A stretch of DNA of 64,000 bases from Comamonadaceae bacterium (GTDB lineage Bacteria > Pseudomonadota > Gammaproteobacteria > Burkholderiales > Burkholderiaceae_C). Position 1 is the stretch's first letter; each line of letters begins with the position of its first letter. Position numbers and translations under genes: made by a program. Below the pieces are notes generated by a model. The model was not told the DNA's origin, ran no database searches, and saw only the letters and a program-made list of their open reading frames with translations. The stretch lies in contig JANOPN010000198.1 of NCBI GenBank assembly GCA_031421855.1, positions 2,397-66,396 on the forward strand, given 5' to 3'. Of this stretch, positions 8,944 through 63,820 are shown piece by piece.

Positions 8944-8983
8944 TTGGCCTTGAATTGAGCCCAACCTAAGGTTAGCCCGAAGA

Positions 8984-9025
8984 CCGAGAGCGCCAAATCG
9001 ACGATTTGGCGCTCTCGGCGCTTTT
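8984..9025 (+). terminator. Rho-independent terminator after ftsZ
   Basis: Near-perfect hairpin CCGAGAGCGCCAAATCG / CGATTTGGCGCTCTCGG followed by CGCTTTT. Confidence 0.75.
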
Positions 9026-9036
9026 AGAATAGCGGC

Positions 9037-10026: not shown

Positions 10027-11792
10027 CCACCACGCAAAAGCTCACTGCCAATCGCACCGCTGAAACGCAGGCCGTTGACGCTCTCAAATTGAAATCGTCG
10101 GACACGCTCAGCATCAGGCCCGGAGATTCTGATCAGGCGAACGCGTTTGCGCTTGCCCAGCGTCAACAAGTCAACCGAGATGCACAAACTGAGCTGGCGA
10201 TCGACAGTGCTTATCGGGCAAAAGAGCAAGAATTGGTCACTGCGCAGTTTGCTGCGCGCAAAAGCGCCCAGGAACGCGACATCCTAACCAAGCAGATCAG
10301 CGCCCAAGAAGCCAACACGAGCCGGTGGCAGCTGCTAAGCGGCGCAGGGGCAGTGGGCACACTCTTGGCGGGCGCACTTTGGCTGCGCACCCGCCGCCAG
10401 TTGCGCGAAGCCCCGATCGCGCCAGATTCTTCCGACACGGGCGATTTGTTTGACACGACCAACTCGGACGACGCGAACACGTTGGCAACCCAATCGGCCC
10501 TGCTTCCCGGCTCAGAATTTGACAGCCACACCGAGCTCGACATCCGCGACGGCCTGTGGAGTGCCGACGAAACGGATGATTTGCCATCGCACGCCACGCT
10601 TCACGAGTTTGATGATGCCGCGCCCTATGCACGAGCAAATCACGGACGCGTGCGCGCGGATGTGCCAGCCAACGATGAACGCTCAGATGCGGCCCACACC
10701 ACATCACCCGGCACGCTGTGGCCGATGACGCAGGCAGCGGGCGAAGATACGGGTAACTCGGATTTTGATGAAATCAATGCGGTTGAAGAAGTCGCTGCGC
10801 AACCTCCTTTGGTGACACCCATCGGCAGCTTACAAACGCCACCGGATCAGTTGTCTGCACAAGCATCACCCCCCGAGATCGCACGGGTAGCCTTGTCGAT
10901 TGACGACGATCGAGCACCCACCGCAACCGCAGCCCCGGCGAAACTCGACCCCACCGCCGATCTGGATACCGCCTCAACCGAGTTGAAGGCGGGCCTGCAA
11001 ACGCCTCCTACCTCACCTTCGCTGCAACCAGTGCCTGCGTCGAAGGACGTCGCGACCTTGACGGACACACCGGCTGTGCCCGAGTGGCTGCAGTCGCCTG
11101 CCACCACAGCAGCGCACGCCACGCCGGAGCCGCAATCCCCGACTCCGATCAAAGACCTGCGGCAAGCATTGTTCAATTCGCTCAAGCGCACGCCGACAAA
11201 ATCTGGCGGTTCAAGCTTCGCCGCCACGGCCATGCCGTCCCACGCTGACATGATGCTCAGCGACGGCTTCAGTTTTCGGGAATTGGCCGATGTGCAATGG
11301 GTTCCGCAGCCGATGCAAGACCTGTTGTTGCTCTACCGCGGGCTGCAAGAGTGGGAAGGCTCGGCTCGATTTGGGGTTGCTGAGCAGGCAATTTTGCATC
11401 ACATCAACCTCCACACCGCAACCAGCGGCTGGGTGTATTTGGAGCTTTTGTACATCTATCGGCGCCTGGATCAACGCAAAGCCTTTGACCAATGGGCCGA
11501 CACGTTCAGAACCCGCTTCAATCGTTTGGCCCCCACATGGACCGATGCGCAAGACATGGGCAAGGAGCTGCTTCGATACGATTTAGCGACCTTGCAACTC
11601 ACACAAGCTTGGGCGAACAACAGCGTCATTTGGTTGCTTGAAGAATGGCTGGTCGGCGAGCCGCACATGCGCCGTTTGATGGACATCAACGCATTTCGCG
11701 ACGTGCTGATGTTGTACGAGCTGTCGCTCATGGTGAACGATAACCCCTACAAACCGATCACACGCCCCAAACGCCCGGCTCAACCGGGTTGA
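10023..11792 (+). CDS. Hypothetical single-pass membrane protein: coiled-coil N-terminus, TM, long acidic/Pro-Thr-Ala-rich linker, ~190-aa globular C-terminal domain
   Basis: ATG 10023 forms an ATGA overlap with the lpxC stop. [22 protein letters not shown] is followed by RTRRQLR. Low-complexity region spans aa ~130-400. No family recognised. Confidence 0.7.
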
Positions 11793-11804
11793 CGCTTTGG
11801 CAGG

Positions 11805-12359
11805 CTAATAGGTTCTGCCGTCTTTGTACATGGCGCTCGCGCGTCGATCCAACACATTGGCAGTTGACAGGCGAGCCATCGACTGCCCAGCATGCGCATG
11901 CGTGATGGCCATTCCCAGGGCATCTGCCGCATCGGGGCCCGGCAACCCGGGCAGTGCCAGCAGCCGCTGAACCATCGCTTGAACTTGGTTTTTAGCCGCT
12001 TTGCCATGGCCGGTCACGGCTTTTTTCATTTGCAGCGCCGTGTATTCGGCAACATCCAGCTTGGCCGCGACCAACGCGCAAAGAGCAGCGCCGCGCGCCT
12101 GTCCCAGTAGCAAGGTTGACTGTGGGTTGACGTTCACAAAAACGATTTCAAGTGCGGCTTGGCTGGGCGCGTAGGTCTTGATCACCTCGGATACGCCATC
12201 AAACAGCACGCCGATCCTGGCTGGCAAGGCGCCGGTTGCCAAGTGGGTGGTTCGAATCGTACCGCTGGCCACATAAGTCAACTGGGCACCGGCCACGTCG
12301 ATGACGCCGAACCCGGTGGTTTGTAGTCCAGGGTCGATTCCCAAAATTCGAATGGTCAA
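11805..12359 (-). CDS. ruvC: Crossover junction endodeoxyribonuclease RuvC
   Basis: N-terminus (M)[20 protein letters not shown] with the catalytic Asp motif; 184 aa. The start codon is apparently TTG. Confidence 0.9.
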
Positions 12360-12369
12360 AATGAAACCA

Positions 12370-12434
12370 TCATATTCATAGCAACAAACTCAATGAATCC
12401 GGTGACCAAGGGCCAAAAAGTCATAAAAATGACC
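12370..12434 (+). repeat. Family-A interspersed repeat, copy 2 (core 12378-12411)
   Basis: 34-nt core identical to copy 1. Tail is GGCCAAAAAGTCATAAAAATGACC. Fills the gap between ruvC and the CdsA-like gene. Confidence 0.9.
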
Positions 12435-12436
12435 AT

Positions 12437-13417
12437 TCAAAGCTCAAAATACCACCGCACCGAGTGAAAAAACACCGGCGCGGCGAAGCACAGGCCGTCA
12501 ACCTTATCGAGCAACCCGCTCGCACCGGTGGTCGAGCTGATGTGGCCGCCCCAATGCTTGACTCCGCGATCACGCTTTAAGGCTTTCATCACCAAATGCC
12601 CAAAACTGCCCGATGCACACGCAATCAAAGCCAAGACAAACGCCTGCCCAGGCTTAAACGGCGTGATGCCCGACAAAATCGCGCCGATCACGGCGGCAAA
12701 AAACAAGCCATACAGCCAGCCTCGCCAATGAAAACTGCGACTCACGTCGGGCGCGACTGGCTCATAGGCCAATTTGCGGGAGATGAGGTGCTGAATCACC
12801 AAACCGCCTTGCACCACAAATACCAAGAAAAACACCAAAAACGCGCCCTTGCCCTCGTACCCGTCAAAGTCAAGCAGCAACAATGCGGGCACGTGACTCA
12901 TGCCGTACACACAAACCATGATGCCCCACTGCAGTTTGGCGTTGCGCTCCAAAAACCGCTCGGGGTCGTTTGACAAGGCACTCACCACCGGAATCGCCAA
13001 AAACACGTAGACCGGAATGAACACCGTGAACAAATCGAAATGCTCGGTCGCCACCAAAACGAACTGGATCGGCAAAACGATGAAGAACGCCAAAATCATG
13101 CTGCGGTGGTCGCCCCGGCGCGTGGGCGAAAGCGTGATGAACTCGCGCAGCGCAAAAAAGGCCACCCAAGCAAACAGCACCGTGGCAGCCACCTCACCCA
13201 GCGCCCAACCGATCCAAAACACGCCAACCATCACCCACGAATTGCGCAACAAGCGCCGGTACTCGTACAAGTCTTCGGTGTATCGGCCATTGATTCGCTC
13301 ATCTTTGAGTGACAGCGCCAAAATCGCCAGCGAGGCCAATGCCAGCAAGCCAAACACCACGACAAACAACAACCCAACTTGGTGATTAGGCGACAAATTG
13401 CGCAAAAAACTGACCAT
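12437..13417 (-). CDS. CDP-diglyceride synthetase (CTP-transferase 1) family membrane protein, YnbB-like
   Basis: Multi-TM protein with a C-terminal SGSFGHLVMKALKRDRGVKHWG...GASGLLDKVD region resembling the CdsA signature. ATG 13415-13417 follows a GAGG. Paired with an acyltransferase as in E. coli ynbAB-type clusters. Confidence 0.7.
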   Translation of the reverse strand: MVSFLRNLSPNHQVGLLFVVVFGLLALASLAILALSLKDERINGRYTEDLYEYRRLLRNSWVMVGVFWIGWALGEVAATVLFAWVAFFALREFITLSPTRRGDHRSMILAFFIVLPIQFVLVATEHFDLFTVFIPVYVFLAIPVVSALSNDPERFLERNAKLQWGIMVCVYGMSHVPALLLLDFDGYEGKGAFLVFFLVFVVQGGLVIQHLISRKLAYEPVAPDVSRSFHWRGWLYGLFFAAVIGAILSGITPFKPGQAFVLALIACASGSFGHLVMKALKRDRGVKHWGGHISSTTGASGLLDKVDGLCFAAPVFFHSVRWYFEL

Positions 13418-13419
13418 AT

Positions 13420-14100
13420 TCAAACCTCGCGCAAGTCAACGACGGCGGTGCGAGCGCGGTCTAAAAACTCGCGCCGATCTTCGTCAGTTCGCAAGGCAAT
13501 CGGCGCGCCAAACGTCACCGAGCACAGCACTGGCACCGGAATCACCTCGCCCTTGGGCAGCAAACGCTGGATGTTGTTGATCCAGGCCGGCACCAACACC
13601 ACATCTGGAAAGCGCTGAGCCAAGTTGTACAAACCCGCCTTAAACGCGCCGGGGTCAACTTGGTTGCCCCGCGTTCCTTCAGGAAACATGATGATCGAGT
13701 CACCATTACTCAAGGCCTCAATCAACGGCTCCAACGGGTCAGCGTCGCCTGAGCGAACTCGGTCAACATAGACCGCGTTGAACACCGCTGTCGTGATCCA
13801 CTGCTTGAACGGCGATGCGGTCCAGTAATCTTTTGCAGCGATCGGGCGGGTGATGTGGCGCAGCTCAGTCGGCAGCGCTGCCCAGATCATCACCAAATCA
13901 GCATGACTTTGATGATTCGCAAAATAAATGCGCTGCTCCGCCTTGGGCGGGCAGCCCCACCACCGTGCCTGCGCCCCCGTGAGCACGCGCACCAGCCCCA
14001 ATAAAAACCAAGTCATCAATTTTGCTGCCATGGCCCAATGATAGAGCTTGAGCCAAGCGCCCTTTGGCGCGCCCGCTCTCGTCGGGCTTTGCCTGCGCAC
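13420..14100 (-). CDS. Lysophospholipid (1-acyl-sn-glycerol-3-phosphate) acyltransferase family protein
   Basis: HX4D motif HQSHAD and FPEGTRG motif. Start is uncertain: GTG 14100 or ATG 14031. Confidence 0.75.
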   Translation of the reverse strand: MRRQSPTRAGAPKGAWLKLYHWAMAAKLMTWFLLGLVRVLTGAQARWWGCPPKAEQRIYFANHQSHADLVMIWAALPTELRHITRPIAAKDYWTASPFKQWITTAVFNAVYVDRVRSGDADPLEPLIEALSNGDSIIMFPEGTRGNQVDPGAFKAGLYNLAQRFPDVVLVPAWINNIQRLLPKGEVIPVPVLCSVTFGAPIALRTDEDRREFLDRARTAVVDLREV

Positions 14101-14149
14101 GCCGCAAGCGACAAAGGGCCTGAATGCCGACGATTTAAGTTATCAGAGT

Positions 14150-14212
14150 CAAATTTATTAATATATTGGCTCTTGGTCACCGGATTCATTGACTTCGATG
14201 CTATGAATTTTA
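14150..14212 (-). repeat. Family-A interspersed repeat, copy 3 (core 14172-14204)
   Basis: Reverse complement reads TTCATAGCATCGAAGTCAATGAATCCGGTGACCAAGAGCC. Confidence 0.85.
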
Positions 14213-14224
14213 ATCAATCGAACG

Positions 14225-14259
14225 CAAAAAAGCCGCGCACGCTTGACGCGTGCGCGGCT
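14225..14259 (-). terminator. Rho-independent terminator of the hydrolase gene
   Basis: Perfect 12-bp stem AGCCGCGCACGC / GCGTGCGCGGCT with a 5-nt loop. Followed on the minus strand by TTTTTT (14225-14230). Confidence 0.8.
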
Positions 14260-14283
14260 GAGTGGGTCCGCTATTAGGTCAGA

Positions 14284-15816
14284 TCACGGTGCCGGGCAGG
14301 CGGCCGTGGTTGCCAAAATAATGGGGCGCAGGGCCCGGACAGCACCGCCATCGTCCGCGCCAATGGTGTTGTTGGTGTGGGTGCAACCGTATGACGGCGA
14401 AGCCACGACCGATGCCGTGACCACGTCGTCACCGGCAGGCTTGGCACCGCCGGCTTCCCACTTGATCATGTCGTCAAAGGCTTTGACCTGCTCCGCAATG
14501 GTGAAGTCGCAATGCGTGGCACCGCGAATGGCGCGCTGAACCAAGAACGCGCTGTTGCCTTTGGCCGCAACCCGCTTTTGGTAGACCTGCTGCATGCTGA
14601 ACGGGACAAACAGGTCGCCCAGGGTATGAATGCTGACCACTGGAATCTTCGAGTCGCCATTGACCTTGGGAATCCAACGCAGGCCATCGCGGCGCAGACG
14701 GTTGGCATCAGCTGCAGGTGTCAGCTTTTGCACACTCGCATTCAACGCGGTGGTCCCGGCGGCGTCGCCGTCAATTGTGTACGTCATGGCGGTGGTGTCC
14801 AGAACGTTTTTGTTCAAGATACCCGTGACCGAGCCGTCGCTGCCCCAAGTGCCGTACGCGCTTGGGAAACTGCCGCCAGCGGCCAAGCCCAGCGCAAACA
14901 AGGGTCGTTCGCCGCCGGTGATGTTTTTAAGCACCGAGGCGAATTTTTGGCCGTTTGCCGTCAACCCAACCTGCGCGTTGGGCGTAGCCGCAGACGGGAA
15001 GGTCGTGAACAAGCTTCCATGAACCAGCCCAAAGATCTCGCTGTACTTGGCTGTTGGGTAGCTGGGCACGCCAGCAATCGCCTGCGCAGCGACTTGCATC
15101 GCGGCAAACTGATTGAACAGCTCGGTGTCGCCCATCACACCGCACATGGGCACAGCGCCAGCGTACTTGGTTTTATTGATGGCAGTCGCGGCGGCTTCGT
15201 CGTCAATGGCTGCGCCAGTGACGTGACCACCCATCGAAATCCCGGTGATGAATATCTTGCTGGGTGCGGCCAAGGTGCGGCCGTTTTTGGTTGCAATTGC
15301 AACAAACTCGTTGGCCAAGGCGTTGGTATCTTCAACACCGGCGCGAACGTCGTAGTAGTTTTTGCTGTAGCTCGATGCCGCCCAAGCATAGCCATTGGCC
15401 AGCAGATAGCGGCGAATGGTGGGGTTTTGCACGGCCACGGCCGAGCCATTGCCGGCAAAGCCGTGCGCATACATCACCAAGCGACCATTCCAATTCGGTG
15501 GCACCTCGACTCGGTACGCCGCGCCCTTGAGCACGCCCGCCCAGCGACTGGTCGTGGCTAAGTCAAACGCATCGCCAGCGACTGCGGTCATGGCCGTGAA
15601 GGTGGTCGCAGCGGCATCTGCGGGTGCAAAAGTCCGCGTGTCGTGCTCGCGGGCTTCTTCAGGAACGGGGGCGGGCGGCGGAGGTGGCGGTGCAACAACC
15701 ACCGGCGGGGGCGCAACCGGGGCTGGGGGCGGCGCGTCTGACCCGCCGCCGCAGGCACTGAGCAGTGCAAACATGGCGACAAGAGAGAGTTTGTGCGGGT
15801 TGGTCAACTGTGGCAT
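14284..15816 (-). CDS. Secreted alpha/beta-fold hydrolase lipoprotein with a poly-proline linker
   Basis: Lipobox signal MPQLTNPHKLSLVAMFALLSAC, then the linker PPPAPVAPPPVVVAPPPPPPAPVP. Nucleophile elbow GISMGGH. Start is ATG 15816 (GAGG 9 nt upstream) or 15825. The longer start in the track runs into repeat copy 4. Confidence 0.7.
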   Translation of the reverse strand: MPQLTNPHKLSLVAMFALLSACGGGSDAPPPAPVAPPPVVVAPPPPPPAPVPEEAREHDTRTFAPADAAATTFTAMTAVAGDAFDLATTSRWAGVLKGAAYRVEVPPNWNGRLVMYAHGFAGNGSAVAVQNPTIRRYLLANGYAWAASSYSKNYYDVRAGVEDTNALANEFVAIATKNGRTLAAPSKIFITGISMGGHVTGAAIDDEAAATAINKTKYAGAVPMCGVMGDTELFNQFAAMQVAAQAIAGVPSYPTAKYSEIFGLVHGSLFTTFPSAATPNAQVGLTANGQKFASVLKNITGGERPLFALGLAAGGSFPSAYGTWGSDGSVTGILNKNVLDTTAMTYTIDGDAAGTTALNASVQKLTPAADANRLRRDGLRWIPKVNGDSKIPVVSIHTLGDLFVPFSMQQVYQKRVAAKGNSAFLVQRAIRGATHCDFTIAEQVKAFDDMIKWEAGGAKPAGDDVVTASVVASPSYGCTHTNNTIGADDGGAVRALRPIILATTAACPAP

Positions 15817-15927
15817 ACGGGTCATCCTCGAAGTGGTTGGTTTAGCAACGCATCGTGCCCCCAAGCCCGCGCGCCAAAACATCGGAAAACCCTTTGTTTC
15901 GTCACATCGGTGACGACAAGCACTCAC

Positions 15928-15990
15928 CAATTCATAGCACCAAAATCAATGGAATCGGCGACCAAGGGCCAATAAGTCCGATTTTTTGCG
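15928..15990 (+). repeat. Family-A interspersed repeat, copy 4 (core 15934-15967)
   Basis: TTCATAGCACCAAAATCAATGGAATCGGCGACCAAGGGCCAATAAGTCC. Confidence 0.8.
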
Positions 15991-16010
15991 CCGCCGCGTC
16001 CAAACGCACG

Positions 16011-17183
16011 CTACTTGGGCCGAACCTGTTTGGGTCGCGTGCCGGGGCTGAGCTTCAGCTTGAGTTTTTCGCCTTTGCGAAGCACCTCAAACGCAGCCTC
16101 CTCAGCCGGTTTGAGCGCAGCCACTGCGGCCAGCATTTGCGGCACGTTGGCAACCGCACGCCCGGCAACCGCCGTGATCACGTCCCCCGGCTTGACGCCG
16201 CCAATCGCGGCCGGGCCGTTTTGCAACACGCCCGTGATGACCACGCCGGTGTCAACTTTCAAGTCAAAGGTGTCGCGCAGTTCCGCATTGATGTCTTGCG
16301 GCTCCACACCGATGTAGCCGCGCGTGACCGAGCCATCTTTGACCAGGGCATCCATCACTTGCTTGGCCGTGCTGACCGGAATGGCAAACCCGATGCCCAT
16401 GTTGCCGCCCGAGCGGCTGTAAATCGCCGTGTTGATGCCCAGCAATTGCCCCGCTGAGTCAACCAATGCCCCGCCCGAGTTACCGGGGTTGATGGCCGCA
16501 TCGGTTTGAATGAAGTTCTCAAACGTGTTAATGCCCAATTGATTGCGCCCGGTGGCGCTCACAATGCCGCCAGTCACGGTTTGCCCCACCCCAAAAGGGT
16601 TACCAATGGCCAAAACCGGGTCACCAATTTGGAGCGAATCGGAGTTGCCAAAGACGATCACCGGGAGTCGTTCAAGCTCAATCTTCAACAGGGCCAGGTC
16701 ACTGTCGGGGTCGGTGCCGATGACTACTGCCTTGGTGCGGCGGCTGTCGCTCAGCACCACTTCAATCTCGTCGGCTCCTTCAACCACGTGGTTATTGGTC
16801 AACACGTAGCCCGACGCGCTGACAATCACGCCTGAGCCCAAACCTTCTTGTGGGCCTTGGTTGGCGTCGCGCTCACCAAAGAAAAACCGAAACCAGGGCT
16901 CGGCCGAGTTCGGGCCACTGCCCGACCCACGTGACTTGCGCGCTTTGCTGGTGTTGATGCTGACGACCGCGCTAGATGCCCGCTGGGCGGCGAGCCGAAA
17001 CGACCCAGCCGGTGCAGGCACGAGCTCGGTCCCGGTTGGCGCTTGAAGCACCGGCACACCGCTGGTGCTGGGTAACGCTACCGCACCCCGGTTGAGCCAC
17101 TGCGGTTTGAGCGTGGCCACAACGAAATAGCCCGCCAGCAAGACCGTGACAGATTGGGAAAACAGCAACCAAAGTTTTTTCAT
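16011..17183 (-). CDS. Membrane-anchored HtrA-family serine endoprotease with one PDZ domain (DegS/AlgW-like)
   Basis: N-terminal TM, then trypsin-fold motifs TNNHVVEGAD, DLALLKI and GNSGGALVD. A single C-terminal PDZ-like region. Confidence 0.85.
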   Translation of the reverse strand: MKKLWLLFSQSVTVLLAGYFVVATLKPQWLNRGAVALPSTSGVPVLQAPTGTELVPAPAGSFRLAAQRASSAVVSINTSKARKSRGSGSGPNSAEPWFRFFFGERDANQGPQEGLGSGVIVSASGYVLTNNHVVEGADEIEVVLSDSRRTKAVVIGTDPDSDLALLKIELERLPVIVFGNSDSLQIGDPVLAIGNPFGVGQTVTGGIVSATGRNQLGINTFENFIQTDAAINPGNSGGALVDSAGQLLGINTAIYSRSGGNMGIGFAIPVSTAKQVMDALVKDGSVTRGYIGVEPQDINAELRDTFDLKVDTGVVITGVLQNGPAAIGGVKPGDVITAVAGRAVANVPQMLAAVAALKPAEEAAFEVLRKGEKLKLKLSPGTRPKQVRPK

Positions 17184-17184
17184 T

Positions 17185-17286
17185 AGGACTTACGCAAAAT
17201 CGTTCCAGCAAGGCGCAGCGACGACGACAGTGCGGATAGCACGGCTAGGAGCTGCAACGCCGCTGGGGCGGTTTTGCGTAAGTCCT
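17185..17286 (+). repeat. 102-nt long-hairpin element (family B), copy A
   Basis: 15-nt terminal inverted repeat AGGACTTACGCAAAA / TTTTGCGTAAGTCCT. About 93% identical to 28117-28218. Begins 2 nt from the ATG of the DegS-like gene. Confidence 0.9.
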
Positions 17287-17374
17287 GTTCATGTGAGGCA
17301 CACCGGTTCAGTTGGCGAATTGTGTCAGTGAACGAGCCAGCACAGGCCGGCCAAAACAGTCGTTTCGTGTCACT

Positions 17375-17445
17375 TTGAGCATTTTTTGTGAGTTATTGGC
17401 ACTTGGTCTCCGTATCTATTGACTTTGTTGCTATTATTTTTGAAT
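17375..17445 (-). repeat. Family-A interspersed repeat, copy 5 (core 17402-17434)
   Basis: Reverse complement reads TTCAAAAATAATAGCAACAAAGTCAATAGATACGGAGACCAAGTGCCAATAACTC. Confidence 0.85.
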
Positions 17446-17627
17446 TATCAAAATCTAGGGCTAACCCTCGCTTGGCTTAGAAACGCCGCTCTAATCCGCA
17501 CGAAAAGCCCCGGATTGGGAGTCTCTTGGATGCGAGCAATCGCAAAACTGACACAAAATAGCACGACCGTTCTTTTTTGTGATCAACTGGCATTTCACGA
17601 TAAATCACGGCATCGACCAACCAACAC

Positions 17628-18305
17628 ATGACCATCACACCGATTCTTCGCTCAACTTCAGTCGTCACGCCCGCTGCGCAAGTGGTCAGCACGGATGCGC
17701 CCAGCCGCGCCGCTCAAAAGGGCACGCAGACCAAAGCGGCCATCATCGATGCTGCTTTGGGGCTGGCCACGCACGTTGGGCTCGAGGGTTTGAGCATTGG
17801 CGCGTTGGCTGAAGTGACGCAAATGAGCAAGTCGGGCGTTTTTGCTCACTTTGGCTCGCGTGAAGAGTTGCAAATCAGCGTGGTGCGCGAATACCACGAC
17901 CGTTTCGAGGCCGAAGTCTTCATTCCGGCGTTGGCCGAAGCCCGTGGCCTGCCGCGCCTACGCAAACTTTTTGATAATTGGATGACCCGTACCTCGATGG
18001 AAATCGACTCCGGTTGCCTCTATATCAGTGGCGCAGTCGAGTTCGACGACCGCCCGGGCCCCGTGCGCGATGCGTTGGCATCCAGCGTTCGCACCTGGTT
18101 GGCGGCGATGCACAAAGCGGTATCGCAAGCGCAATTGCTCGGTCAAATCGACGATGAGACCGATGCACAGCAAATTTTGTTTGAAATCCACGGCCTGATT
18201 TTGGCCCTGCATTTTGACGCGCGATTTCTCAAAACCAGTGGCAGTGCAGCCCGTGCGGTCACGGGTTTTGAACACATCTTGGCCCGATACGGCCGCAACG
18301 ATTGA
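17628..18305 (+). CDS. TetR/AcrR-family transcriptional regulator (head of the beta-oxidation operon)
   Basis: HTH region AIIDAALGLATHVGLEGLSIGALAEVTQMSKSGVFAHFGSREEL. Immediately upstream of an acyl-CoA dehydrogenase. Confidence 0.88.
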   Translation: MTITPILRSTSVVTPAAQVVSTDAPSRAAQKGTQTKAAIIDAALGLATHVGLEGLSIGALAEVTQMSKSGVFAHFGSREELQISVVREYHDRFEAEVFIPALAEARGLPRLRKLFDNWMTRTSMEIDSGCLYISGAVEFDDRPGPVRDALASSVRTWLAAMHKAVSQAQLLGQIDDETDAQQILFEIHGLILALHFDARFLKTSGSAARAVTGFEHILARYGRND

Positions 18306-23133: not shown

Positions 23134-24339
23134 ATGAAACAACTCACAGAAGCCTACATCGTCGCCGCCACGCGCACCCCGATTGGCCGCTCGCACAAGG
23201 GCAGCTTCAAGCATTTGCGCCCTGACGACTTGCTGGCTCGCGCCATTCGCTCGGCGCTGGCTCAAGTTCCCGGGCTGGACTCCGCTTCGATTGAAGACGT
23301 GATCGCCGGTTGCGCCATCCCCGAAGCACAGCAGGGCTTAAACGTGGCGCGCATTGGCGCGGTTTTAGCTGGGCTGCCCACGTCAGTCGGTGGCATCACC
23401 GTGAACCGCTTTTGCGCCTCGGGCATCAGCGCGGTTCAAATGGCGGCTGATCGCATCCGCGTGGGAGAAGCTGACGTCATGATTGCCGCTGGCTGCGAAA
23501 GCATGAGCATGGTGCCGATGATGGGCAACACGCCGAGCTTGTCGCCCAGCATTTTTGGCAACACCGACAACGTAGACGACTACGGCATTGCCTACGGCAT
23601 GGGCTTGACGGCTGAGAAAGTCGCCAACCAATACCAAGTCAGCCGCGACGCGCAAGACGAGTTTGCCTACAAAAGCCACATGAAGGCCATCGCCGCCATG
23701 AAAGCGGGGCATTTTTCGGCTGAAATCACACCGATCGAAGTGACCGAGCGCAGCGTCAACCTGGACACCACCGAAGTCAGCTTGAACACCAAAATTGTGA
23801 GCTTAGACGAAGGCGCACGCCCTGACACCACGGTCGAGGGCCTGGCCAAGCTGAAGGCGGTTTTTGCTGCTCGCGGCTCGGTCACGGCTGGCAACAGCTC
23901 GCAGACATCCGACGGCGCAGGCGCACTCATTTTGGCCAGTGAATCCGCCGTTAAGCGCTTCAATTTGAAGCCGCTGGCCCGGTTTGTCAGCTTTGCCAGC
24001 AAGGGCGTGCCCCCGCATTTGATGGGCATTGGCCCCATCGCCGCGATCCCGGCTGCGCTCAAATCGGCTGGCTTGCACCTGGACGACATCGACTGGTTTG
24101 AGCTCAACGAGGCGTTTGCGGCGCAGTCCTTAGCCGTCATCAACACCCTGGGTCTCAACCCCGAGCGCGTCAACCCCATGGGCGGCGCGATTGCACTGGG
24201 CCACCCATTGGGCGCCACCGGCGCGATTCGGGCCGCGACCGTTGTCCATGCGCTGCAACGCACGCAAGGGCGCTTCGGCATGGTCACCATGTGCGTGGGC
24301 ATGGGCCAAGGCGCTGCGGGCATTTTTGAGCGCGTTTAG
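23134..24339 (+). CDS. Acetyl-CoA C-acyltransferase (3-ketoacyl-CoA thiolase)
   Basis: AYIVAATRTPIGRS, active-site region VNRFCASGISAV, C-terminal [17 protein letters not shown] and MCVGMGQG. Confidence 0.93.
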   Translation: MKQLTEAYIVAATRTPIGRSHKGSFKHLRPDDLLARAIRSALAQVPGLDSASIEDVIAGCAIPEAQQGLNVARIGAVLAGLPTSVGGITVNRFCASGISAVQMAADRIRVGEADVMIAAGCESMSMVPMMGNTPSLSPSIFGNTDNVDDYGIAYGMGLTAEKVANQYQVSRDAQDEFAYKSHMKAIAAMKAGHFSAEITPIEVTERSVNLDTTEVSLNTKIVSLDEGARPDTTVEGLAKLKAVFAARGSVTAGNSSQTSDGAGALILASESAVKRFNLKPLARFVSFASKGVPPHLMGIGPIAAIPAALKSAGLHLDDIDWFELNEAFAAQSLAVINTLGLNPERVNPMGGAIALGHPLGATGAIRAATVVHALQRTQGRFGMVTMCVGMGQGAAGIFERV

Positions 24340-24344
24340 TCGTT

Positions 24345-24410
24345 TTTTATGAGAAATTAACCATTGGTCACCGGATTCATTGACTTCTATGCTATTTAAT
24401 TAGTAGCAAA
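24345..24410 (-). repeat. Family-A interspersed repeat, copy 6 (core 24362-24395)
   Basis: Reverse complement reads GCTACTAATTAAATAGCATAGAAGTCAATGAATCCGGTGACCAATGG. Confidence 0.85.
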
Positions 24411-25242: not shown

Positions 25243-25254
25243 CCTGAGATAATC

Positions 25255-25320
25255 CCATTTTGATAGCATCAAACCCAATGAATTCGGTGACCAAAGGCTA
25301 AAAATGCATCAAAATGACCT
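25255..25320 (+). repeat. Family-A interspersed repeat, copy 7 (core 25263-25297)
   Basis: GATAGCATCAAACCCAATGAATTCGGTGACCAAAGGCTAAAAATGCATCAAAATGACC. Its tail contains the SD-like AAAGG and the ATG (25304) of the downstream SDR gene. Confidence 0.85.
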
Positions 25321-28111: not shown

Positions 28112-28116
28112 TTAAT

Positions 28117-28218
28117 AGGACTTATGCAAAATTGTCCCAGCAAGGCGCAGCGACGACGACAGTGCGAACAGCACGGCTAGGAGCTGCAACGCGGCTGGGG
28201 TGGTTTTGCGTAAGTCCT
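28117..28218 (+). repeat. 102-nt long-hairpin element (family B), copy B
   Basis: Same architecture as 17185-17286. Lies between the convergent ddpX-like and dacB genes. Followed 3 nt later by family-A copy 8. Confidence 0.9.
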
Positions 28219-28220
28219 AA

Positions 28221-28283
28221 TTAAAATAATAGCAACGAACCCAATAGATCCGGAGACCAAGGGCTGATTTCACTCAAAAAATG
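28221..28283 (+). repeat. Family-A interspersed repeat, copy 8 (core 28229-28262)
   Basis: TTAAAATAATAGCAACGAACCCAATAGATCCGGAGACCAAGGGCTGATTTCACTCAAAAAATG. Ends at the dacB stop codon. Confidence 0.85.
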
Positions 28284-34020: not shown

Positions 34021-34090
34021 TACTATGTTTTTAGTAGCAACAAACTCAATGAATCCGGAGACCAAGTGCCGAAAAATCCTAAAATTCGAT
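34021..34090 (+). repeat. Family-A interspersed repeat, copy 9 (core ~34034-34068)
   Basis: TTTTTAGTAGCAACAAACTCAATGAATCCGGAGACCAAGTGCCGAAAAATCCTAAAATTCG. Lies between the convergent ldcA and AmpH-like genes and overlaps the latter's stop codon. Confidence 0.85.
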
Positions 34091-46840: not shown

Positions 46841-46875
46841 GACCAATTTGGGCGCGCTTGCACCCGTTGAAGATG

Positions 46876-46940
46876 TTCAAAAATAGTAGCAACGAACTCA
46901 ATAGATTTCGAGACCAATGGCCAAAAATCCATCAAAAACA
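46876..46940 (+). repeat. Family-A interspersed repeat, copy 10 (core 46886-46920)
   Basis: TTCAAAAATAGTAGCAACGAACTCAATAGATTTCGAGACCAATGGCCAAAAATCCATCAAAAAC. Confidence 0.85.
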
Positions 46941-47795: not shown

Positions 47796-47817
47796 TGCCC
47801 AAACCCTTAAAAATCTA

Positions 47818-47847
47818 TTTTCACCAAGCAAGCGCTTGCTAAAATAA
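47818..47847. promoter_or_regulatory. Candidate TetR operator: perfect 14-bp palindrome AGCAAGCGCTTGCT (47827-47840) in an A/T-rich frame
   Basis: 24-50 nt upstream of the TetR ATG at 47871. 14 nt (CCAAGCAAGCGCTT) plus flanks recur at 62522-62550. Confidence 0.55.
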
Positions 47848-47870
47848 AACCATTCTGATATGGTTCATCC

Positions 47871-48629
47871 ATGCCCCGCGACCCTGACCCCGACCTCAAA
47901 CCCGATGCACCCGATGCACCCGATGCACCCGACGAGCCCGCTGTGCCCAGCGCACGCGCCCGGGGACGTCCGCGCAAAACCTTGAGCGAGCGCGACGACG
48001 GCAATCGCCGCATGGGGTTGATTGAGGCAGCAGCCAAATTGTTCCGCCAAAAAGGCTTTGCTGCAACCGCAACCCGAGACATCGCGTCAGCCGTCGGCAT
48101 GCGCAGCGGCAGCCCGTTTTACCACTTCAAAAGCAAAGACGATTTGCTGGCCGCCGTGATGGAACAAGGCATGACAAGGGCCATTGAAAGCCAGCAGTTG
48201 CGACTGAGTTCACTCCTAAATAGTGAGCAACAAACCCAACAGATTCGGAGACCAAGTGCTGATTTCACGTCAAAAGTGCTGCAAATCTTGGTTCGCAACC
48301 ATTTTGAGGTGCTGGTAGGCCCCGGCAGCGACTTCATACCGGTCATGTTGTACGAATGGCGCTCATTGGGCGACGATGCGCGGGCGCGGGTTCAGGCCTT
48401 GCAAACCCAATACGAGGCCGCTTGGCGACCCGTTTTGTCGGTCCTGCACGCCTCGGGGCGGCTGCGCGGGGATGAAAAACTGGCGCGACTGCTCATTTTT
48501 GGCGCCCTGAACTGGACGGCACAGTGGTATCGAATGGGTGATGCAGGCAACCCCGGTGTCGCCACGCTTGACGAGCTTACCGACAGCGCATTGGCCCTGT
48601 TCCTACACGACCTTGCGCCCGCCAAATAG
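47871..48629 (+). CDS. TetR-family transcriptional regulator (AtuR-like position) carrying an in-frame family-A repeat insertion
   Basis: HTH region LIEAAAKLFRQKGFAATATRDIASAVGMRSGSPFYHFKSKDDLL. 252 aa, longer than the usual ~200 aa because of a Pro/Asp-rich N-terminal tail and a ~20-aa insert. Confidence 0.85.
   Translation: MPRDPDPDLKPDAPDAPDAPDEPAVPSARARGRPRKTLSERDDGNRRMGLIEAAAKLFRQKGFAATATRDIASAVGMRSGSPFYHFKSKDDLLAAVMEQGMTRAIESQQLRLSSLLNSEQQTQQIRRPSADFTSKVLQILVRNHFEVLVGPGSDFIPVMLYEWRSLGDDARARVQALQTQYEAAWRPVLSVLHASGRLRGDEKLARLLIFGALNWTAQWYRMGDAGNPGVATLDELTDSALALFLHDLAPAK
47901..47933 (+). repeat. 9-bp tandem repeat CCCGATGCA x3 (plus a partial unit) encoding PDA-PDA-PDA
   Basis: Direct reading. 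Lies in the N-terminal tail of the TetR gene. Confidence 0.9.
48215..48275 (+). repeat. Family-A interspersed repeat, copy 11, inside the TetR CDS (core 48223-48258)
   Basis: AAATAGTGAGCAACAAACCCAACAGATTCGGAGACCAAGTGCTGATTTCACGTCAAAAGTG, translated in frame as NSEQQTQQIRRPSADFTSK. Confidence 0.85.
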
Positions 48630-48653
48630 ACTGATTCAGGACACCATCACCCC

Positions 48654-50336
48654 ATGACCGCCAGCTTTCAACCCAGCTTCAACACGTCCAGCCCCACCGC
48701 GCTGGCTCGCGCAACCGCGATGCGCGCCAAGGTCGAGTCGCTCAGGGCGCTAGAGGCCCGCGCGACTTACGAGTCGAGCAAGTCACGCGCGACGTTTGAC
48801 AAGCGCGGCCAGTTGCTGCCGCGTGACCGAGTGGCCTTGCTGATCGATCCGCACACACCGTGGTTGCCACTGATGAGCTTGGTCGGCTACGGGCTTGACG
48901 TGGAAACCAGCAACGACCCTGTCGCCCAGGCCAAGGCCCTGTCGCAGTCGATCCCCGGCGGCGGCATGGTCGCAGGCATTGGATTCATCAGCGGGGTGCG
49001 GTGCATGGTGAGTGCGAGCGACTCCGGCATTGAGGCCGGTGCCATCCAAGCAGGTGGCCTACAAAAAATCCTTCGCGTGCAAGAAATCGCGCTACAAAAC
49101 AAACTGCCATTCATCCATTTGGTTGAAAGCGCAGGGGCCAATTTGCTTCGCTACCGGGTTGATGGCTTTGTGCAAGGCGGCGCACTGTTTCGCAATCTGG
49201 CGCGCTTGTCGGCGGCTGGCATCCCGGTGTTGACGATTCAGCATGGCTCAGGCACAGCAGGCGGCGCGTACATGCCGGGCTTGAGTGACGCGGTGATCAT
49301 GGTCGAGGGGCGATCAAGGGCGTTTTTGGCCGGCCCCCCCTTGCTCAAGGCCGCAACTGGCGAGATTGCAGGAGAGGAAGAGCTGGGCGGCGCATTCATG
49401 CACGCCAGCGTCTCAGGCTTGGGCGAGGCTTTGGTGGCAGACGACCGCGAAGCCATTGGCCTGGCACGTGCCTGGGTGGCTCAATGGGAGCATTTCAAGC
49501 CAAATTTGATGCCAAATATGGCCTTGGTCACCGAATCTATTGAGTTTACTGCTACTAATAGCATAGCAAGTGACGACATGCTCGCGCTGATGCCGTCACA
49601 CTACGCCGAGCCGGTTGACATGCGCGAAGTGATGCATCGGCTGGTTGACTTGCAGCTGTTTGAGTTCAAAGCCCTTTATGGCGCGGCGACCATTTGCGCT
49701 CAAGGCCAGATTGGCGGACACAGCGTGGGCTTCATCAGCAACAACGGCCCAATCGACGTGGCCGGTGCCAACAAGGCCACCCATTTCATCCAGCACATGT
49801 GCCAACTGGGGCACCCCATCATCTACTTGCAAAACACCACCGGCTACATGGTGGGTGTGGCCAGTGAGCAGGCTGGCATGATCAAGCACGGCAGCAAAAT
49901 GATCCAAGCGGTGACGAACGCCAGCGTGCCCCAAATCACCATCCAGTGCGGCGCCAGTTTTGGAGCAGGCAACTACGGCATGTGCGGCCGGGCGTTTGAG
50001 CCCCGTTTTTTGTTCAGCTGGCCCGGCGCACAAACCGCCGTCATGGGCGGTGAGCAAGCGGCTGGCACCATGCGCGAAGTCGTCATGGGCGCGTTTGCCA
50101 AGCGCGGCCTCACCCCAAGCCCCGAGCAAAGCGCGAAATTTGAAGCCCAAGAGCGCGCCATCGTGGCCTTGTTTGCAGCGCAGCAAGATGGGTTTATCAC
50201 CAGCGGCATGGGCTTGGACGACGGCGTGATCGACCCCCGAGACACCCGCGCGACGCTGATCGAATGCTTGGACATGTGCGCCCAGGCCGCCACCCGACAA
50301 CTTCGCCCCACGTCGTTTGGCGTGGCGCGCATGTGA
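48654..50336 (+). CDS. Acyl-CoA carboxylase carboxyltransferase (beta) subunit, methylcrotonyl-/geranyl-CoA carboxylase type, carrying an in-frame family-A repeat insertion
   Basis: Two crotonase-like CT halves: GGMVAGIGFISGV...; NKATHFIQHMCQLGHPIIYLQNTTGYMVG; GASFGAGNYGMCGRAF. 560 aa. Confidence 0.88.
   Translation: MTASFQPSFNTSSPTALARATAMRAKVESLRALEARATYESSKSRATFDKRGQLLPRDRVALLIDPHTPWLPLMSLVGYGLDVETSNDPVAQAKALSQSIPGGGMVAGIGFISGVRCMVSASDSGIEAGAIQAGGLQKILRVQEIALQNKLPFIHLVESAGANLLRYRVDGFVQGGALFRNLARLSAAGIPVLTIQHGSGTAGGAYMPGLSDAVIMVEGRSRAFLAGPPLLKAATGEIAGEEELGGAFMHASVSGLGEALVADDREAIGLARAWVAQWEHFKPNLMPNMALVTESIEFTATNSIASDDMLALMPSHYAEPVDMREVMHRLVDLQLFEFKALYGAATICAQGQIGGHSVGFISNNGPIDVAGANKATHFIQHMCQLGHPIIYLQNTTGYMVGVASEQAGMIKHGSKMIQAVTNASVPQITIQCGASFGAGNYGMCGRAFEPRFLFSWPGAQTAVMGGEQAAGTMREVVMGAFAKRGLTPSPEQSAKFEAQERAIVALFAAQQDGFITSGMGLDDGVIDPRDTRATLIECLDMCAQAATRQLRPTSFGVARM
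49505..49567 (-). repeat. Family-A interspersed repeat, copy 12, inside the carboxyltransferase CDS (core 49522-49556)
   Basis: Plus strand reads GCCTTGGTCACCGAATCTATTGAGTTTACTGCTACTAATAGC, the reverse complement of the family core. Translated in frame as ALVTESIEFTATNS. Confidence 0.85.
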
Positions 50337-54104: not shown

Positions 54105-54127
54105 CGCTTCAAAACGGTATCTCAGAG

Positions 54128-54192
54128 AGATTTTTAGTGGAAAATCAGCACTTGGTCACCGTATTCATTGGGTTAGTTGCTATTATTTTTGA
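54128..54192 (-). repeat. Family-A interspersed repeat, copy 13 (core 54151-54183)
   Basis: Reverse complement reads ATCAAAAATAATAGCAACTAACCCAATGAATACGGTGACCAAGTGCTGATTTTCCACTAAAAATC. Its A-rich 5' flank holds the last codons and the TAA stop (54183-54185) of atuA. Confidence 0.85.
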
Positions 54193-55997
54193 TTGTCCAG
54201 CTTCACCCACGCCATCAAACTCGGTGGCACTTTGATCGGCATGTTGAGCAATATTTGAGCCATGCCTTTGCCCAGCGGGTCGTGGCGAAGGCTGGCCATG
54301 CCGCCGCCGTCTAGGGCTTGCTGGCAGACGAAATTGAAAGCGTTGATGCCGGGTAATTCGTATCGCGTGACACTGCCGCTGACGAAATGGGCCAAGTACC
54401 CAGCGACGGCAGCTTCAGTGACTTGAACGGCGATCAAACCGAGCAAGTCTGGGTGTCGAGCAACGATGCCGATGTTGGATGTGTCGCCTTTGTCGCCGCT
54501 GCGGCCATGAGCAACGGCAATCAACGGCACGGTGACGCTATCGGTCAAATCAATCACGGGCCATGCTTTGGGGGTACCAGGCTCGTCGCCCGTATCGATG
54601 CCCGGCGCGACATCAATGGCGGTTGACACATCGCCAATTTTCATCGTTGCGCGCACGAGCGGCTTATCGATCAAGAAGCCAAACTGCTTGATGCAAGGGT
54701 TGACGCTGGGTCGGCCGCCGTCCATGCCAGTCGTACCGGGGCTAAACGACGTACCCGGTGCTGCAATTTCTCGCGCAAAAATCTCAAGTGCGGCTTTCAC
54801 GGGATGGCGAACAGCCAAACGCAAAATGGCCTCGCGCACATGCACGCCATGCGCGTGCGGGCCAAATGCGTTCTCGGTTCCCAGGATTTCAATGTTGGTG
54901 GCGCTGTAGTCGGGCAAGCCCAACCGCGCAAACATCGCGCGGGTGCGCTCCAGCAAAGCCTCACCGGTGCGCCGCGCTTTTGCTGCCGCATCAAACCCGA
55001 TGATTGCGATTTGCACGACGCTTTTGAATCCGTCCATGTATGTCGCGCTGACCTTGTACTGCGCCGGTGCGGGCAACCCACGTGCGCCGGTGACGCGAAC
55101 CGCGTGCTCGCCGACCGCCGCGAGCTGCACATGGGTGAAGTCGCAAATCACGTCCGGCAGCCGGTAGTGCGCCGGGTCGTGAATTTCGTACAGCAACTGC
55201 TCTGCGATCACCGCGGGCGTGACCAACCCACCGGTGCCTGGCGGTTTGGTCGCAATGAAGCTGCCGTCAAACGAGACCTCAACAATGGGGTAGCCGATGT
55301 TGGCCCAGTCTGGCACGTCTTGCCAATCGGTGAACAAACCGCCAGTACCCTGTGCGCCGCACTCAATGATGTGCCCCGCCAAACTGCCTTGGGCCAACTC
55401 ATTAAGCTGATCGGCGCGCCAATTGAAATGGTGCATGAGCGCACCCAGCGTAACGGCGCTGTCGACGCACCGACCGGTGATGACGACATCGGCCCCGGCG
55501 TCCAGCGCGGCCTTGATTGGCAACGCGCCCAAATACGCATTGGCCGTGAGCAACTTGTCTGGCAGCGCGCGCGTGCCGTTGAACTCACGCGTGCCCAGCT
55601 CGCGCAGCAGGGGCAGCCGATCGGTCACATCGTCTCCGAGCACCACGGCGACTTTGAGATCAAGCCCAAGTTCTGCCGCCAAGGCCTCTACTGCTTTGGC
55701 ACACGACTGAGGATTCACTCCGCCTGCATTGCTGATCAAGCGGATGCCCTTGGCTTTGCAGTCTTTGAGGATTTGGCGGCAGGTGACCGTGACGAAATCA
55801 AGTGCAAAACCCGCGTCCGGGTTTTTCATACGCTGCGCGGCCATGATGCTCATGGTCAGCTCAGCCAAGTAGTCAAACACCACGAAATCAACATCGCCAA
55901 ATGCCACCAATTGGGGTGCGCCGACGCTGCTGTCGCCCCAAAATCCACTCGCTCCGCCGATGCGCAGGGGTTTGATTGCTGTGGTGGTGTTGTTCAT
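54183..55997 (-). CDS. atuA: AtuA-family protein (DUF1446, acyclic terpene utilisation; includes the C-terminal DUF4387-like part)
   Basis: N-terminal LRIGGASGFWGDS signature; 604 aa, similar in size to P. aeruginosa AtuA. Next to an atuC/D/F-like carboxylase cluster. Confidence 0.78.
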   Translation of the reverse strand: MNNTTTAIKPLRIGGASGFWGDSSVGAPQLVAFGDVDFVVFDYLAELTMSIMAAQRMKNPDAGFALDFVTVTCRQILKDCKAKGIRLISNAGGVNPQSCAKAVEALAAELGLDLKVAVVLGDDVTDRLPLLRELGTREFNGTRALPDKLLTANAYLGALPIKAALDAGADVVITGRCVDSAVTLGALMHHFNWRADQLNELAQGSLAGHIIECGAQGTGGLFTDWQDVPDWANIGYPIVEVSFDGSFIATKPPGTGGLVTPAVIAEQLLYEIHDPAHYRLPDVICDFTHVQLAAVGEHAVRVTGARGLPAPAQYKVSATYMDGFKSVVQIAIIGFDAAAKARRTGEALLERTRAMFARLGLPDYSATNIEILGTENAFGPHAHGVHVREAILRLAVRHPVKAALEIFAREIAAPGTSFSPGTTGMDGGRPSVNPCIKQFGFLIDKPLVRATMKIGDVSTAIDVAPGIDTGDEPGTPKAWPVIDLTDSVTVPLIAVAHGRSGDKGDTSNIGIVARHPDLLGLIAVQVTEAAVAGYLAHFVSGSVTRYELPGINAFNFVCQQALDGGGMASLRHDPLGKGMAQILLNMPIKVPPSLMAWVKLDNQK

Positions 55998-61179: not shown

Positions 61180-61255
61180 AAATACTATTATTTATGTAGC
61201 AACAAAGTGAATAGATATCGAGACCAAGTGCCAAAAACACCCAATATTTCACTCA
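61180..61255 (+). repeat. Family-A interspersed repeat, copy 14 (core 61196-61230)
   Basis: TATTTATGTAGCAACAAAGTGAATAGATATCGAGACCAAGTGCCAAAAACACCC. Confidence 0.8.
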
Positions 61256-63747: not shown

Positions 63748-63754
63748 ATGAGTC

Positions 63755-63820
63755 CTAAAGATATAGCAACAGATTCAATGAATCCGTTGACCAAGTGCCG
63801 AAAAGTCATTATTTTTTGTC
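63755..63820 (+). repeat. Family-A interspersed repeat, copy 15 (core 63763-63796)
   Basis: AAGATATAGCAACAGATTCAATGAATCCGTTGACCAAGTGCCGAAAAGTCATTATTTTTT. Confidence 0.85.

Follow-up and report, generated by a model that had tools for sequence, protein, structure and literature searches.

An in-frame repeat copy in a TetR-family regulator gene of a Comamonadaceae bacterium is closer to its own genome's dispersed copies than to its positional orthologues

How does a repeat whose consensus carries stop codons come to be translated within a conserved regulator, and why does it still look like the repeats scattered around it? The question is raised by a TetR-family regulator gene in a 64,000-nucleotide stretch of DNA from a Comamonadaceae bacterium (GenBank assembly GCA_031421855.1, contig JANOPN010000198.1, positions 2,397 to 66,396 of the forward strand; hereafter the window), whose open reading frame (ORF) passes through a copy of a short dispersed repeat that we call family A. 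An earlier note, made from the letters of this DNA alone, had explained the copy as an insertion that was later purged of its stops. Our analysis finds that the segment is a member of family A within an intact and constrained gene, that its position is shared with related genomes, that it resembles dispersed copies of its own genome more than its positional orthologues, and that it deviates from the family at the sites where the family would create stops.

The repeat copy within the TetR gene

Repeat finding and a mismatch scan identified 15 copies of family A in the window (G+C content 58.7%), ten in plus and five in minus orientation, or about one per 4.3 kb. The unit is approximately 60-75 nt long and non-palindromic, with a 32-nt conserved core, and the common core of the window copies is close to TAGCAACAAACTCAATGAATCCGGTGACCAAG. 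An in-register alignment of 40 copies from the window and its relatives gives the order of its parts as a hairpin, the invariant box TAGCA, 20 variable nucleotides (N20), a 3' box (e.g. GACCAAGKGCC) and an A-rich tail; the hairpin, which is small and AT-rich (GCTAY-N7-8-RTAGC, 5 bp), is found in only part of the copies. On a crude gene map, 13 of the 15 copies lie between genes, in short spacers of 60-110 nt and in either orientation to the flanking genes, and they occupy entire spacers, resembling inserted units. The other two are inside genes, one for the TetR regulator and one for a carboxyltransferase.

A profile built from the other 14 copies recovers the copy in the TetR gene at exactly 48215-48275 (nhmmer, E=1e-9, 38 bits), the coordinates that the earlier note had given, and thus places the segment in a multi-copy dispersed family. 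The TetR ORF reads through the copy without interruption, as previously quoted, its translation across this region being ...LLNSEQQTQQIRRPSADFTSKVLQ..., and the product of 252 residues contains SEQQTQQIRRPSADFTSK. The nearest paralogue is the intergenic copy at 28217-28279, which is 91% identical over 43 nt, the variable tail GCTGATTTCAC included, with no identical run longer than 11 nt. When the loop that holds the copy is excluded, comparison with the orthologue in a related genome (L001, GCA_965187865.1) gives a proportion of synonymous differences (pS) of 0.65, corresponding to a synonymous divergence (dS) of ~1.5, a non-synonymous divergence (dN) of 0.17 and a dN/dS of 0.11. Judged by these substitution rates, purifying selection acts on the regulator, and neutral sites have nearly reached saturation between the two genomes.

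In the frame of the TetR gene the window consensus reads TAG CAA CAA ACT CAA TGA ATC CGG TGA, with stops at codons 1 and 6 and, in the copies that carry GGTGACC, at codon 9. Of the 13 intergenic window copies, twelve are stopped in this frame at both codon 1 and codon 6, and codon 9 is also a stop in seven. Set against the consensus and these 13 copies, the in-gene triplets are GAG, CAG and AGA where the family has TAG, TGA or TAG, and TGA, in agreement with the earlier note. Its statement that GAG and CAG occur in none of the other 14 copies likewise stands: alignment positions T29 (of TAG) and T44 (of CAAT) are T in all 14 and are changed solely in the TetR copy. The 'extra G' said to create GAG is a T-to-G substitution and not an insertion. 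The CAG codon is one nucleotide from the CAATAG variant of copies 28217, 17373, 46874, 61184 and 49494, and the AGA triplet belongs to a GGAGACC variant that is present, as had been remarked, in intergenic copies (28217, 34022 and 17373), with CGAGACC in 46874 and 61184. The other two plus frames of the family are open when read from the consensus, so the TetR gene uses the only closed plus frame; it is therefore unlikely that insertion followed by the repair of two or three stops is, as a single history, the whole account.

A shared position and own-genome similarity

A protein search with the TetR regulator returned an identical protein, then sequences with 71% (P0002) and 65% (P0003) identity, followed by hundreds at 55-63%. 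From GTDB species genomes 80 loci were recovered, every one of them in Comamonadaceae (Polaromonas, Ramlibacter, Hydrogenophaga and Rhodoferax), and a metagenome scan with the TetR alignment gave 80 loci, none closer than ~61% identity and with one weak match to the family (L149). Most orthologues have 58-62 residues between the motifs SPFYHF and DFIPV. This distance is 73 in both the window and L001, whose loops are thus equal in length, and 77 in a third genome, L003 (GCA_013298415.1); in a group of Polaromonas metagenome-assembled genomes (MAGs; L005-L009 and L018) it is 73 in L006, 72 in L007 and L009, 69 in L005 and L018, and 66 in L008. A family-profile search confined to 151 TetR gene segments matched extended-loop genes only, always in the loop and in frame (E=2e-8 for the window, 9e-4 for L001, 5e-3 for L006, 0.016 for L003, 0.08 for L009 and 0.2 for L018), while none of the short-loop orthologues (58-62 residues) among these segments matched at E<50. 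This outcome is in keeping with the earlier note's reading of the segment as repeat-derived. L001, L003, L005-L009 and L018 carry the element-derived segment at the same loop and in the same frame, and codon 1 of the TetR copies is GAG in all lineages but L018, where it is AAG.

These comparisons alter what can be kept of the insertion proposed earlier. True membership of the family, an intact gene under constraint and differences exactly at the stop-creating sites all remain; a single insertion confined to this lineage and then purged does not, given the same-site, same-frame segments in L001, L003 and the Polaromonas MAGs. Nor is the segment a lineage-specific indel that coincides exactly with the repeat and adds ~20 residues. 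The net gain is ~11 residues over most orthologues, for a repeat footprint of 20, and 15 residues over the closest solved homologue (PDB 4mxm); orthologues without the family signal have loops 11-15 residues shorter, an indel smaller than the element. On the evidence of the aligned loops, the TetR segment is element-derived, absent as such from most orthologues and common to the window's nearest relatives, and its insertion is neither recent nor lineage-specific.

The short-loop TetR genes have some resemblance to the element. They too have GAG CAR at the position of codon 1, and they carry GCTAC-N8-GAGCA and CGCnGGCT at the element's spacing; three of them (L046, L013 and L019) agree with the Polaromonas type at 4-5 of 6 diagnostic sites, and the Polaromonas-type core resembles short-loop TetR sequence. 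This likeness could be due to chance, to the decay of an older copy or to a pseudo-site to which the machinery of the family is drawn; the profile search of the 151 segments gives no support for homology of the short loops to the element.

The second in-gene copy, in minus orientation, falls in a linker of the carboxyltransferase that is hypervariable, and it is read in a frame that the family consensus leaves open. The same position is occupied in L001 and L005-L009 by a copy that is likewise minus-oriented and is of the local type, and the linker is identical in length in the window and L001. In other Comamonadaceae (L011, L020, L022, L034, L040, L042, L045, L065 and others) the linker holds peptides such as WIAGQARND, FRRKPESM, PLPLAGEGWGEG and KLESDPNF, which resemble translations of other repeat families. 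Judged by these peptides, the linker seems to take up in-frame repeats in general.

Dispersed copies at the orthologue loci have the same architecture as those of the window (TAGCA, N20, 3' box, fixed spacing) and a sequence specific to each genome: from the TAGC box onward it is TAGCAACAAAGTGTTTAAATTCGCTGGCTAACTGCC in the L001 genome (A), TAGCTGTTTAGGCAGTAAATACGCCGGCTAAGTGCC in the Polaromonas MAGs (P) and TAGCACCACAGGCAATCTGCATGCGGGCCAAGTGCC in Rhodoferax L071. The in-gene copies of the window (W) and L001 were compared with the dispersed copies by gapless matches over 53 nt, for which the background is 13 +/- 3.2. The TetR copy of the window has a mean of 33.9 matches (maximum 38) to window dispersed copies and 26.5 to those of the L001 genome; for the TetR copy of L001 the values are reversed, with 26.5 to the window and 34.2 (maximum 41) to its own genome. 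The carboxyltransferase copies behave in the same way, with means of 33.0 (window) and 29.8 (L001) for the window copy, and 28.6 and 37.0 for the L001 copy. The positional orthologues match each other at only 32 of 53 sites. At five sites that separate the W and A consensus sequences, the four in-gene copies carry the state of their own genome in 18 of 20 calls. For L003 the TetR copy and a single dispersed copy are available, and an L003-specific 3' box, GACAGAG, is found in both.

The similarity is not evenly spread along the TetR copy. In the window its 5' part matches L005 at 13 of 16 sites and L001 at 10 of 16, against a mean of 6.5 for window paralogues, whereas its centre matches window paralogues at 21/25 and 12/12 and TetR orthologues at only 12-17/25 and 5-8/12; the tail is about equally close to both. 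The TetR copy of L001 shows the same mosaic pattern. The stops of the local families in the TetR frame (codons 1 and 6) are TAG with TGA or TAG in the window and TAG with TAA in both the L001 genome and the Polaromonas MAGs. Codon 6 of the TetR copies differs by lineage (CAG, ATT, GAA or AAA, CAA) and is often one nucleotide from the local stop. Three dispersed copies are free of stops after codon 1 (15922 in the window, and P9_int3 and P9_int4) and are possible donors.

An orthologous intergenic spacer gives a similar picture. A search with a DegP-like protease of the window added one contig of the L001 genome (L164) and one of the L003 genome (L165); between them these contribute a further two copies of A-type and one of L003-type. 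The window and L164 have orthologous spacers upstream of the DegP-like gene (the gene on the far side is 84% identical), each with a copy in the same orientation; the copies are of W-type and A-type respectively and match each other at 30 of 53 sites, against means of 37.8 and 41.7 to paralogues of their own genomes. The copies downstream of the gene, which have one flank only in common, share 31 of 53 sites, against 34.3 and 39.3 within their own genomes.

A copy at 1971-2034 of L164 (minus) joins a window-like 5' half of N20 (AAAGTCAATGAA) to an A-type 3' box (GCTGGCTAA), so the family variants inside one genome are not fully uniform. In the window, a gene of 548 codons at 14284-15930 is bracketed by the family-A copies 14143 and 15922. 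This gene is absent from L165, in which the DegP-like gene is followed by a copy-free spacer of 105 nt (3227-3332) and then by the orthologue of an acyltransferase gene.

The regulator, its neighbours and other features of the window

The TetR gene is the first of an acyl-CoA carboxylase/dehydrogenase (liu/atu-like) cluster; the carboxyltransferase gene is next downstream, and at the orthologous locus of L001 genes for an acyl-CoA dehydrogenase and a biotin carboxylase follow. The protein has the TetR-type helix-turn-helix at its N-terminus (TetR_N, residues 50-96, E=4e-15) and an all-helical C-terminal ligand and dimerisation domain (TetR_C_24, residues 137-246, E=1e-15), both Pfam matches exceeding the curated cut-offs, and 4mxm is its closest homologue in the PDB (E=8e-35). 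An AlphaFold2 (AF2) model with a mean predicted local distance difference test (pLDDT) score of 80.7 has as its best Foldseek matches PfiT (4mo7), AibR (5k7h), FadR and KstR2, with a probability of 1.00. All four are acyl-CoA-responsive TetR regulators, and AibR responds to isovaleryl-CoA; given the gene context and the similarity of the modelled fold to AibR, the ligand is presumably an acyl-CoA of the adjacent pathway.

In the model, the repeat-encoded residues 116-135 span the loop at 123-129 together with the adjoining ends of helix 4 (89-122) and helix 5 (130-149), and confidence drops at the embedded repeat, with a pLDDT of 73 in the block 121-130. The segment is thus placed at the tip of a helix 4/helix 5 hairpin, where it may form the surface loop that the earlier note suggested looking for, and not directly after the DNA-binding domain, as that note had it. 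Nearer the N-terminus, a 9-nt tandem repeat (CCCGATGCA, 3-4 units, 47896-47944) encodes a (PDA)n stretch in the N-terminal tail; the tails of TetR orthologues are variable in length and unrelated to it.

Table 1. Coordinates of the family-A copies, their host genes and the altered stop triplets in the window.
Feature	Position	Strand	Evidence
Intergenic copy	4441-4503	+	repeat scan, profile, gene map
Intergenic copy	12366-12428	+	repeat scan, profile, gene map
Intergenic copy	14143-14214	-	repeat scan, profile, gene map
Intergenic copy downstream of DegP-like gene; no stop at codons 6/9 in TetR frame	15922-15984	+	
Intergenic copy in spacer upstream of DegP-like protease gene; A-type copy in the same orthologous spacer of L164	17373-17444	-	
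Intergenic copy	24334-24405	-	repeat scan, profile, gene map
Intergenic copy	25251-25313	+	repeat scan, profile, gene map
Intergenic copy nearest to TetR copy; box and N20 21/25, 3' box 11/12, tail GCTGATTTCAC in common	28217-28279	+	
Intergenic copy	34022-34084	+	repeat scan, profile, gene map
Intergenic copy ~1 kb upstream of TetR gene	46874-46936	+	repeat scan, profile, gene map
TetR-family regulator ORF, 252 aa	47871-48629	+	ORF list, Pfam, AF2, Foldseek, dN/dS
In-frame copy in TetR gene, residues 116-135 (LNSEQQTQQIRRPSADFTSK)	48215-48275	+	nhmmer leave-out profile
GAG replacing TAG (5' box TAGCA) of all other window copies	48225-48227	+	
CAG replacing family TGA/TAG (codon 6)	48240-48242	+	
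AGA replacing TGA of GGTGACC copies; GGAGACC variant, also in intergenic copies	48249-48251	+	
Carboxyltransferase subunit ORF, 560 aa, next downstream of TetR	48654-50336	+	Pfam Carboxyl_trans E=4e-100
In-frame copy in hypervariable linker of carboxyltransferase (FKPNLMPNMALVTESIEFTATNSIA)	49494-49565	-	leave-out profile E=1e-10
Intergenic copy at end of carboxylase cluster	54122-54193	-	repeat scan, profile, gene map
Intergenic copy	61184-61246	+	repeat scan, profile, gene map
Intergenic copy	63751-63813	+	repeat scan, profile, gene map

Searches for known signals within family A gave negative results. Rfam has no family at the gathering threshold anywhere in the window, and none at E<=1 in 17100-17500 or 47800-49700. 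The DNA folds of eight copies are no better than those of shuffled sequences (z-scores from -1.9 to +2.0), which rules out a hairpin of the repetitive extragenic palindromic (REP) kind or a structured RNA as the nature of the family. A promoter and terminator scan of 4000-18000 returned sites at chance frequency, with none at a fixed place in the element, and viral contigs searched with a degenerate core pattern gave no match.

On the crude map, several intergenic copies overlap the start or stop codon predicted for a neighbouring gene (4497, 25304 and 15930), and at 4497 and 25304 the ATG comes from the A-rich tail; the repeat may be a source of translation signals. A strong terminator-like hairpin (12 pairs, 10 of them G-C, followed by a T run; 14231-14259, minus) adjoins the copy 14143-14214. 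Another element is present as two 103-nt copies with 93% identity and 15-bp terminal inverted repeats (AGGACTTACGCAAAA...TTTTGCGTAAGTCCT): the one at 28116-28218 abuts family-A copy 28217, and the one at 17184-17286, in the region 17100-17500 that lacks an Rfam match, is ~90 nt from copy 17373.

How the copy may have come to match its own genome

To account for this pattern we propose, at roughly even chances, that the element in the TetR gene is conserved in position and that its central ~37 nt have repeatedly been re-templated from the local family, with selection removing the stops. A family-A copy would have been in the TetR loop since before the window lineage split from those of L001 and L003, so that position and frame would be inherited. 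The 5' box, N20 and 3' box would periodically be overwritten from the dispersed copies of the same genome, either by gene conversion or by the action of whatever enzyme mobilises the family, which the present data do not distinguish. Selection on the regulator would let pass only stop-free tracts or later point mutants, leaving a copy like the local family except at the stop positions, and the segment would be tolerated in the protein, prolonging two helices into the solvent. The overwriting, its mechanism and the tolerance of the loop are what we infer from these comparisons.

Several points weigh against this proposal. No overwriting event has been directly observed. The family is sampled by 4 intergenic copies in the L001 genome, one in L003 and 8 in the Polaromonas group, all from MAG contigs. 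The copies are only ~65-80% alike, and identical runs of at most 11 nt are short for conversion of the RecA type, which is weakly argued against on this ground. The centre of the Polaromonas TetR copies matches the short-loop gene L046 (18/25) as well as it does its own family. The window and L001 do not share the sites of their intergenic copies beside the TetR operon, so gain and loss, a turnover by insertion, occurs too. Finally, in an unbootstrapped Neighbor-Joining tree with short deep branches, the clade of window, L001 and L003 and the clade of Polaromonas MAGs are not sisters, so the two element-bearing TetR clades need not have a single origin.

The last two of these points would fit independent insertions at a hot spot, an explanation that we think unlikely: each lineage would have received its own variant of the family, with the TetR loop and the carboxyltransferase linker as preferred or tolerated targets and the stops repaired later, which amounts to the model of the earlier note played out anew in every lineage. 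The translations of other repeat families in the linker of many Comamonadaceae and the different repairs of codon 6 speak for such insertions as well. They fit less well with the identical lengths of both the loop and the linker in the window and L001, with the codon-1 GAG shared across lineages (AAG in L018), and with a 5' part of the TetR copy that carries the signal of the orthologues and not of the family. The net gain of 11 residues is also short of an element of 20-25 codons, there is no empty site of the required length among ~150 orthologues, and the closed frame means that each insertion would have knocked out the gene until two or three substitutions had restored it.

Decidedly unlikely, in our judgement, is that nothing was copied and that family A consists of functional sites for a DNA-binding or uptake-type factor of drifting specificity, kept up by point mutation and selection or by biased recombination between strains. 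Such sites would explain why copies persist at orthologous positions despite near-saturated synonymous sites (dS ~1.5), why both orientations occur and why no RNA structure, promoter or terminator signal is found, and uptake sequences do arise by mutation and recombination and occur in coding regions (PMC2817400). The conserved unit is however 35-60 nt long and not 9-12 nt, it occurs about once per 4.3 kb with only two of 15 copies in genes, it fills whole spacers in the manner of inserted units, and it lengthens both proteins. The families also differ at many linked positions, which would be hard to track site by site, and the variable tail of the TetR copy is common to one particular paralogue; unit length, linked differences and this shared tail make the explanation fit less well.

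We regard as quite improbable a single ancient insertion followed by ordinary divergence only, with the likeness to the local family residual or due to chance. The shared position and the shared GAG agree with it, but copies at two positions in genes and at one to two between genes are, in both genomes, more similar to paralogues of their own genome than to orthologues, and 28217 and the TetR copy are 91% identical over 43 nt even though synonymous sites are near saturation. A pseudogene, or an artefact of assembly made by repeats (which can misassemble in what may be a draft genome), is hardly credible for this ORF, as the coding sequence on either side of the copy is collinear with the orthologues, dN/dS is 0.11, a confident TetR fold is predicted and the same arrangement recurs in independent assemblies (L001, L002, L003 and L005-L009).

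The re-templating that we propose has partial precedents. Rickettsia palindromic elements (RPEs) are palindromic units of ~100-150 bp with an open frame of their own, found in frame in protein genes of Rickettsia (Ogata et al. 2000, as summarised in PMC10969869). Family A is like them in being a short dispersed repeat in frame within an intact ORF, in adding a peptide where the fold presumably tolerates it and in having a position shared by relatives; it is not an RPE proper, being ~60-75 nt long, not palindromic, read in the TetR gene in a frame that the consensus closes, and hosted by Comamonadaceae. To our knowledge, RPE copies have been described as decaying insertions and not as tracking a genome-specific variant of the family.

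Similar in behaviour are REPINs, repeats built from REPs, which within species change to match the RAYT (REP-associated tyrosine transposase) of their genome while kept at one position; the authors of this work suggest that the enzyme 'can modify or replace' copies in place (the REPORTH preprint, bioRxiv 10.1101/2024.10.14.618302). As in that system, position-conserved repeats follow the family of their own genome, and family A does so at four positions. REPs are, by definition, extragenic, and they form GC-rich hairpins arranged as inverted pairs, whereas family A lacks both a strong hairpin and doublets: the folds of eight copies contain no GC-rich imperfect palindrome of 20-40 nt and only the 5-bp AT-rich hairpin, the GTAG or CGTC tag at one end of REPs may be compared with the conserved [AG]TAGC box, after which there is no palindrome, and no inverted doublets are visible among the 15 window copies. 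Unlike the REPIN study, our comparison is made across genera with synonymous sites near saturation and includes coding copies. Family A is thus not a REP.

Two other classes are more distant. DNA uptake sequences have a 9-12 nt core, arise by mutation without adding length and lie in genes in a third to two thirds of cases (PMC2817400), and their lineage-specific 'dialects' are the stated subject of PMC3630211. Family A shares with them an abundant oriented motif that occurs in both orientations and inside genes, but its unit, at 60-75 nt, takes up entire spacers and makes two proteins longer, far from a 9-12 nt core present about once per kb, often in coding sequence and with no change in length. 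Intragenic copies of enterobacterial repetitive intergenic consensus (ERIC) sequences, BOX elements and MITEs (miniature transposable elements with inverted repeats) that give in-frame fusions are reviewed in PMC10969869, the consulted passages of which do not mention concerted change at orthologous sites. These are also small non-autonomous repeats tolerated in an ORF; family A differs from them in having no evident terminal inverted repeats or target-site duplications, and by inspection of the 40-copy alignment its 5' and 3' boxes are not reverse complements and no direct repeats flank it. Of all these, the in-frame RPEs and the in-place change of REPINs are the closest precedents.

A bolder form of the re-templating account is possible, although we are inclined to doubt it: family A would be kept at fixed positions across genera, and a copying or repair activity dedicated to it and specific to each genome, in a partnership like that of REPINs and RAYTs but with a non-palindromic element, would rewrite it in place, in coding DNA too, repeatedly re-specifying the loop peptides of two proteins while selection vetoes stops only. 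Loop peptides such as SEQQTQQIRRPSADF and the repeat-derived linker peptides of the carboxyltransferase are not evidence of function at the level of the protein. Repeats inserted in frame are commonly portrayed as single accidents followed by decay; in the present case two coding positions are occupied by the element in several genera, and in each the sequence keeps to the version of its own genome save at sites that would become stops. If this reflects replacement in place, it would carry what was recently observed for REPINs over to a repeat of different structure, to coding DNA and to a much deeper divergence, and the in-gene copies would form a natural assay, recording which positions can be changed (the stops) and which are re-imposed. 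It would also be a means for selfish or symbiotic repeats to rewrite the surface loops of conserved proteins again and again, a turnover of peptide loops driven by mobile DNA in proteins that are otherwise conserved.

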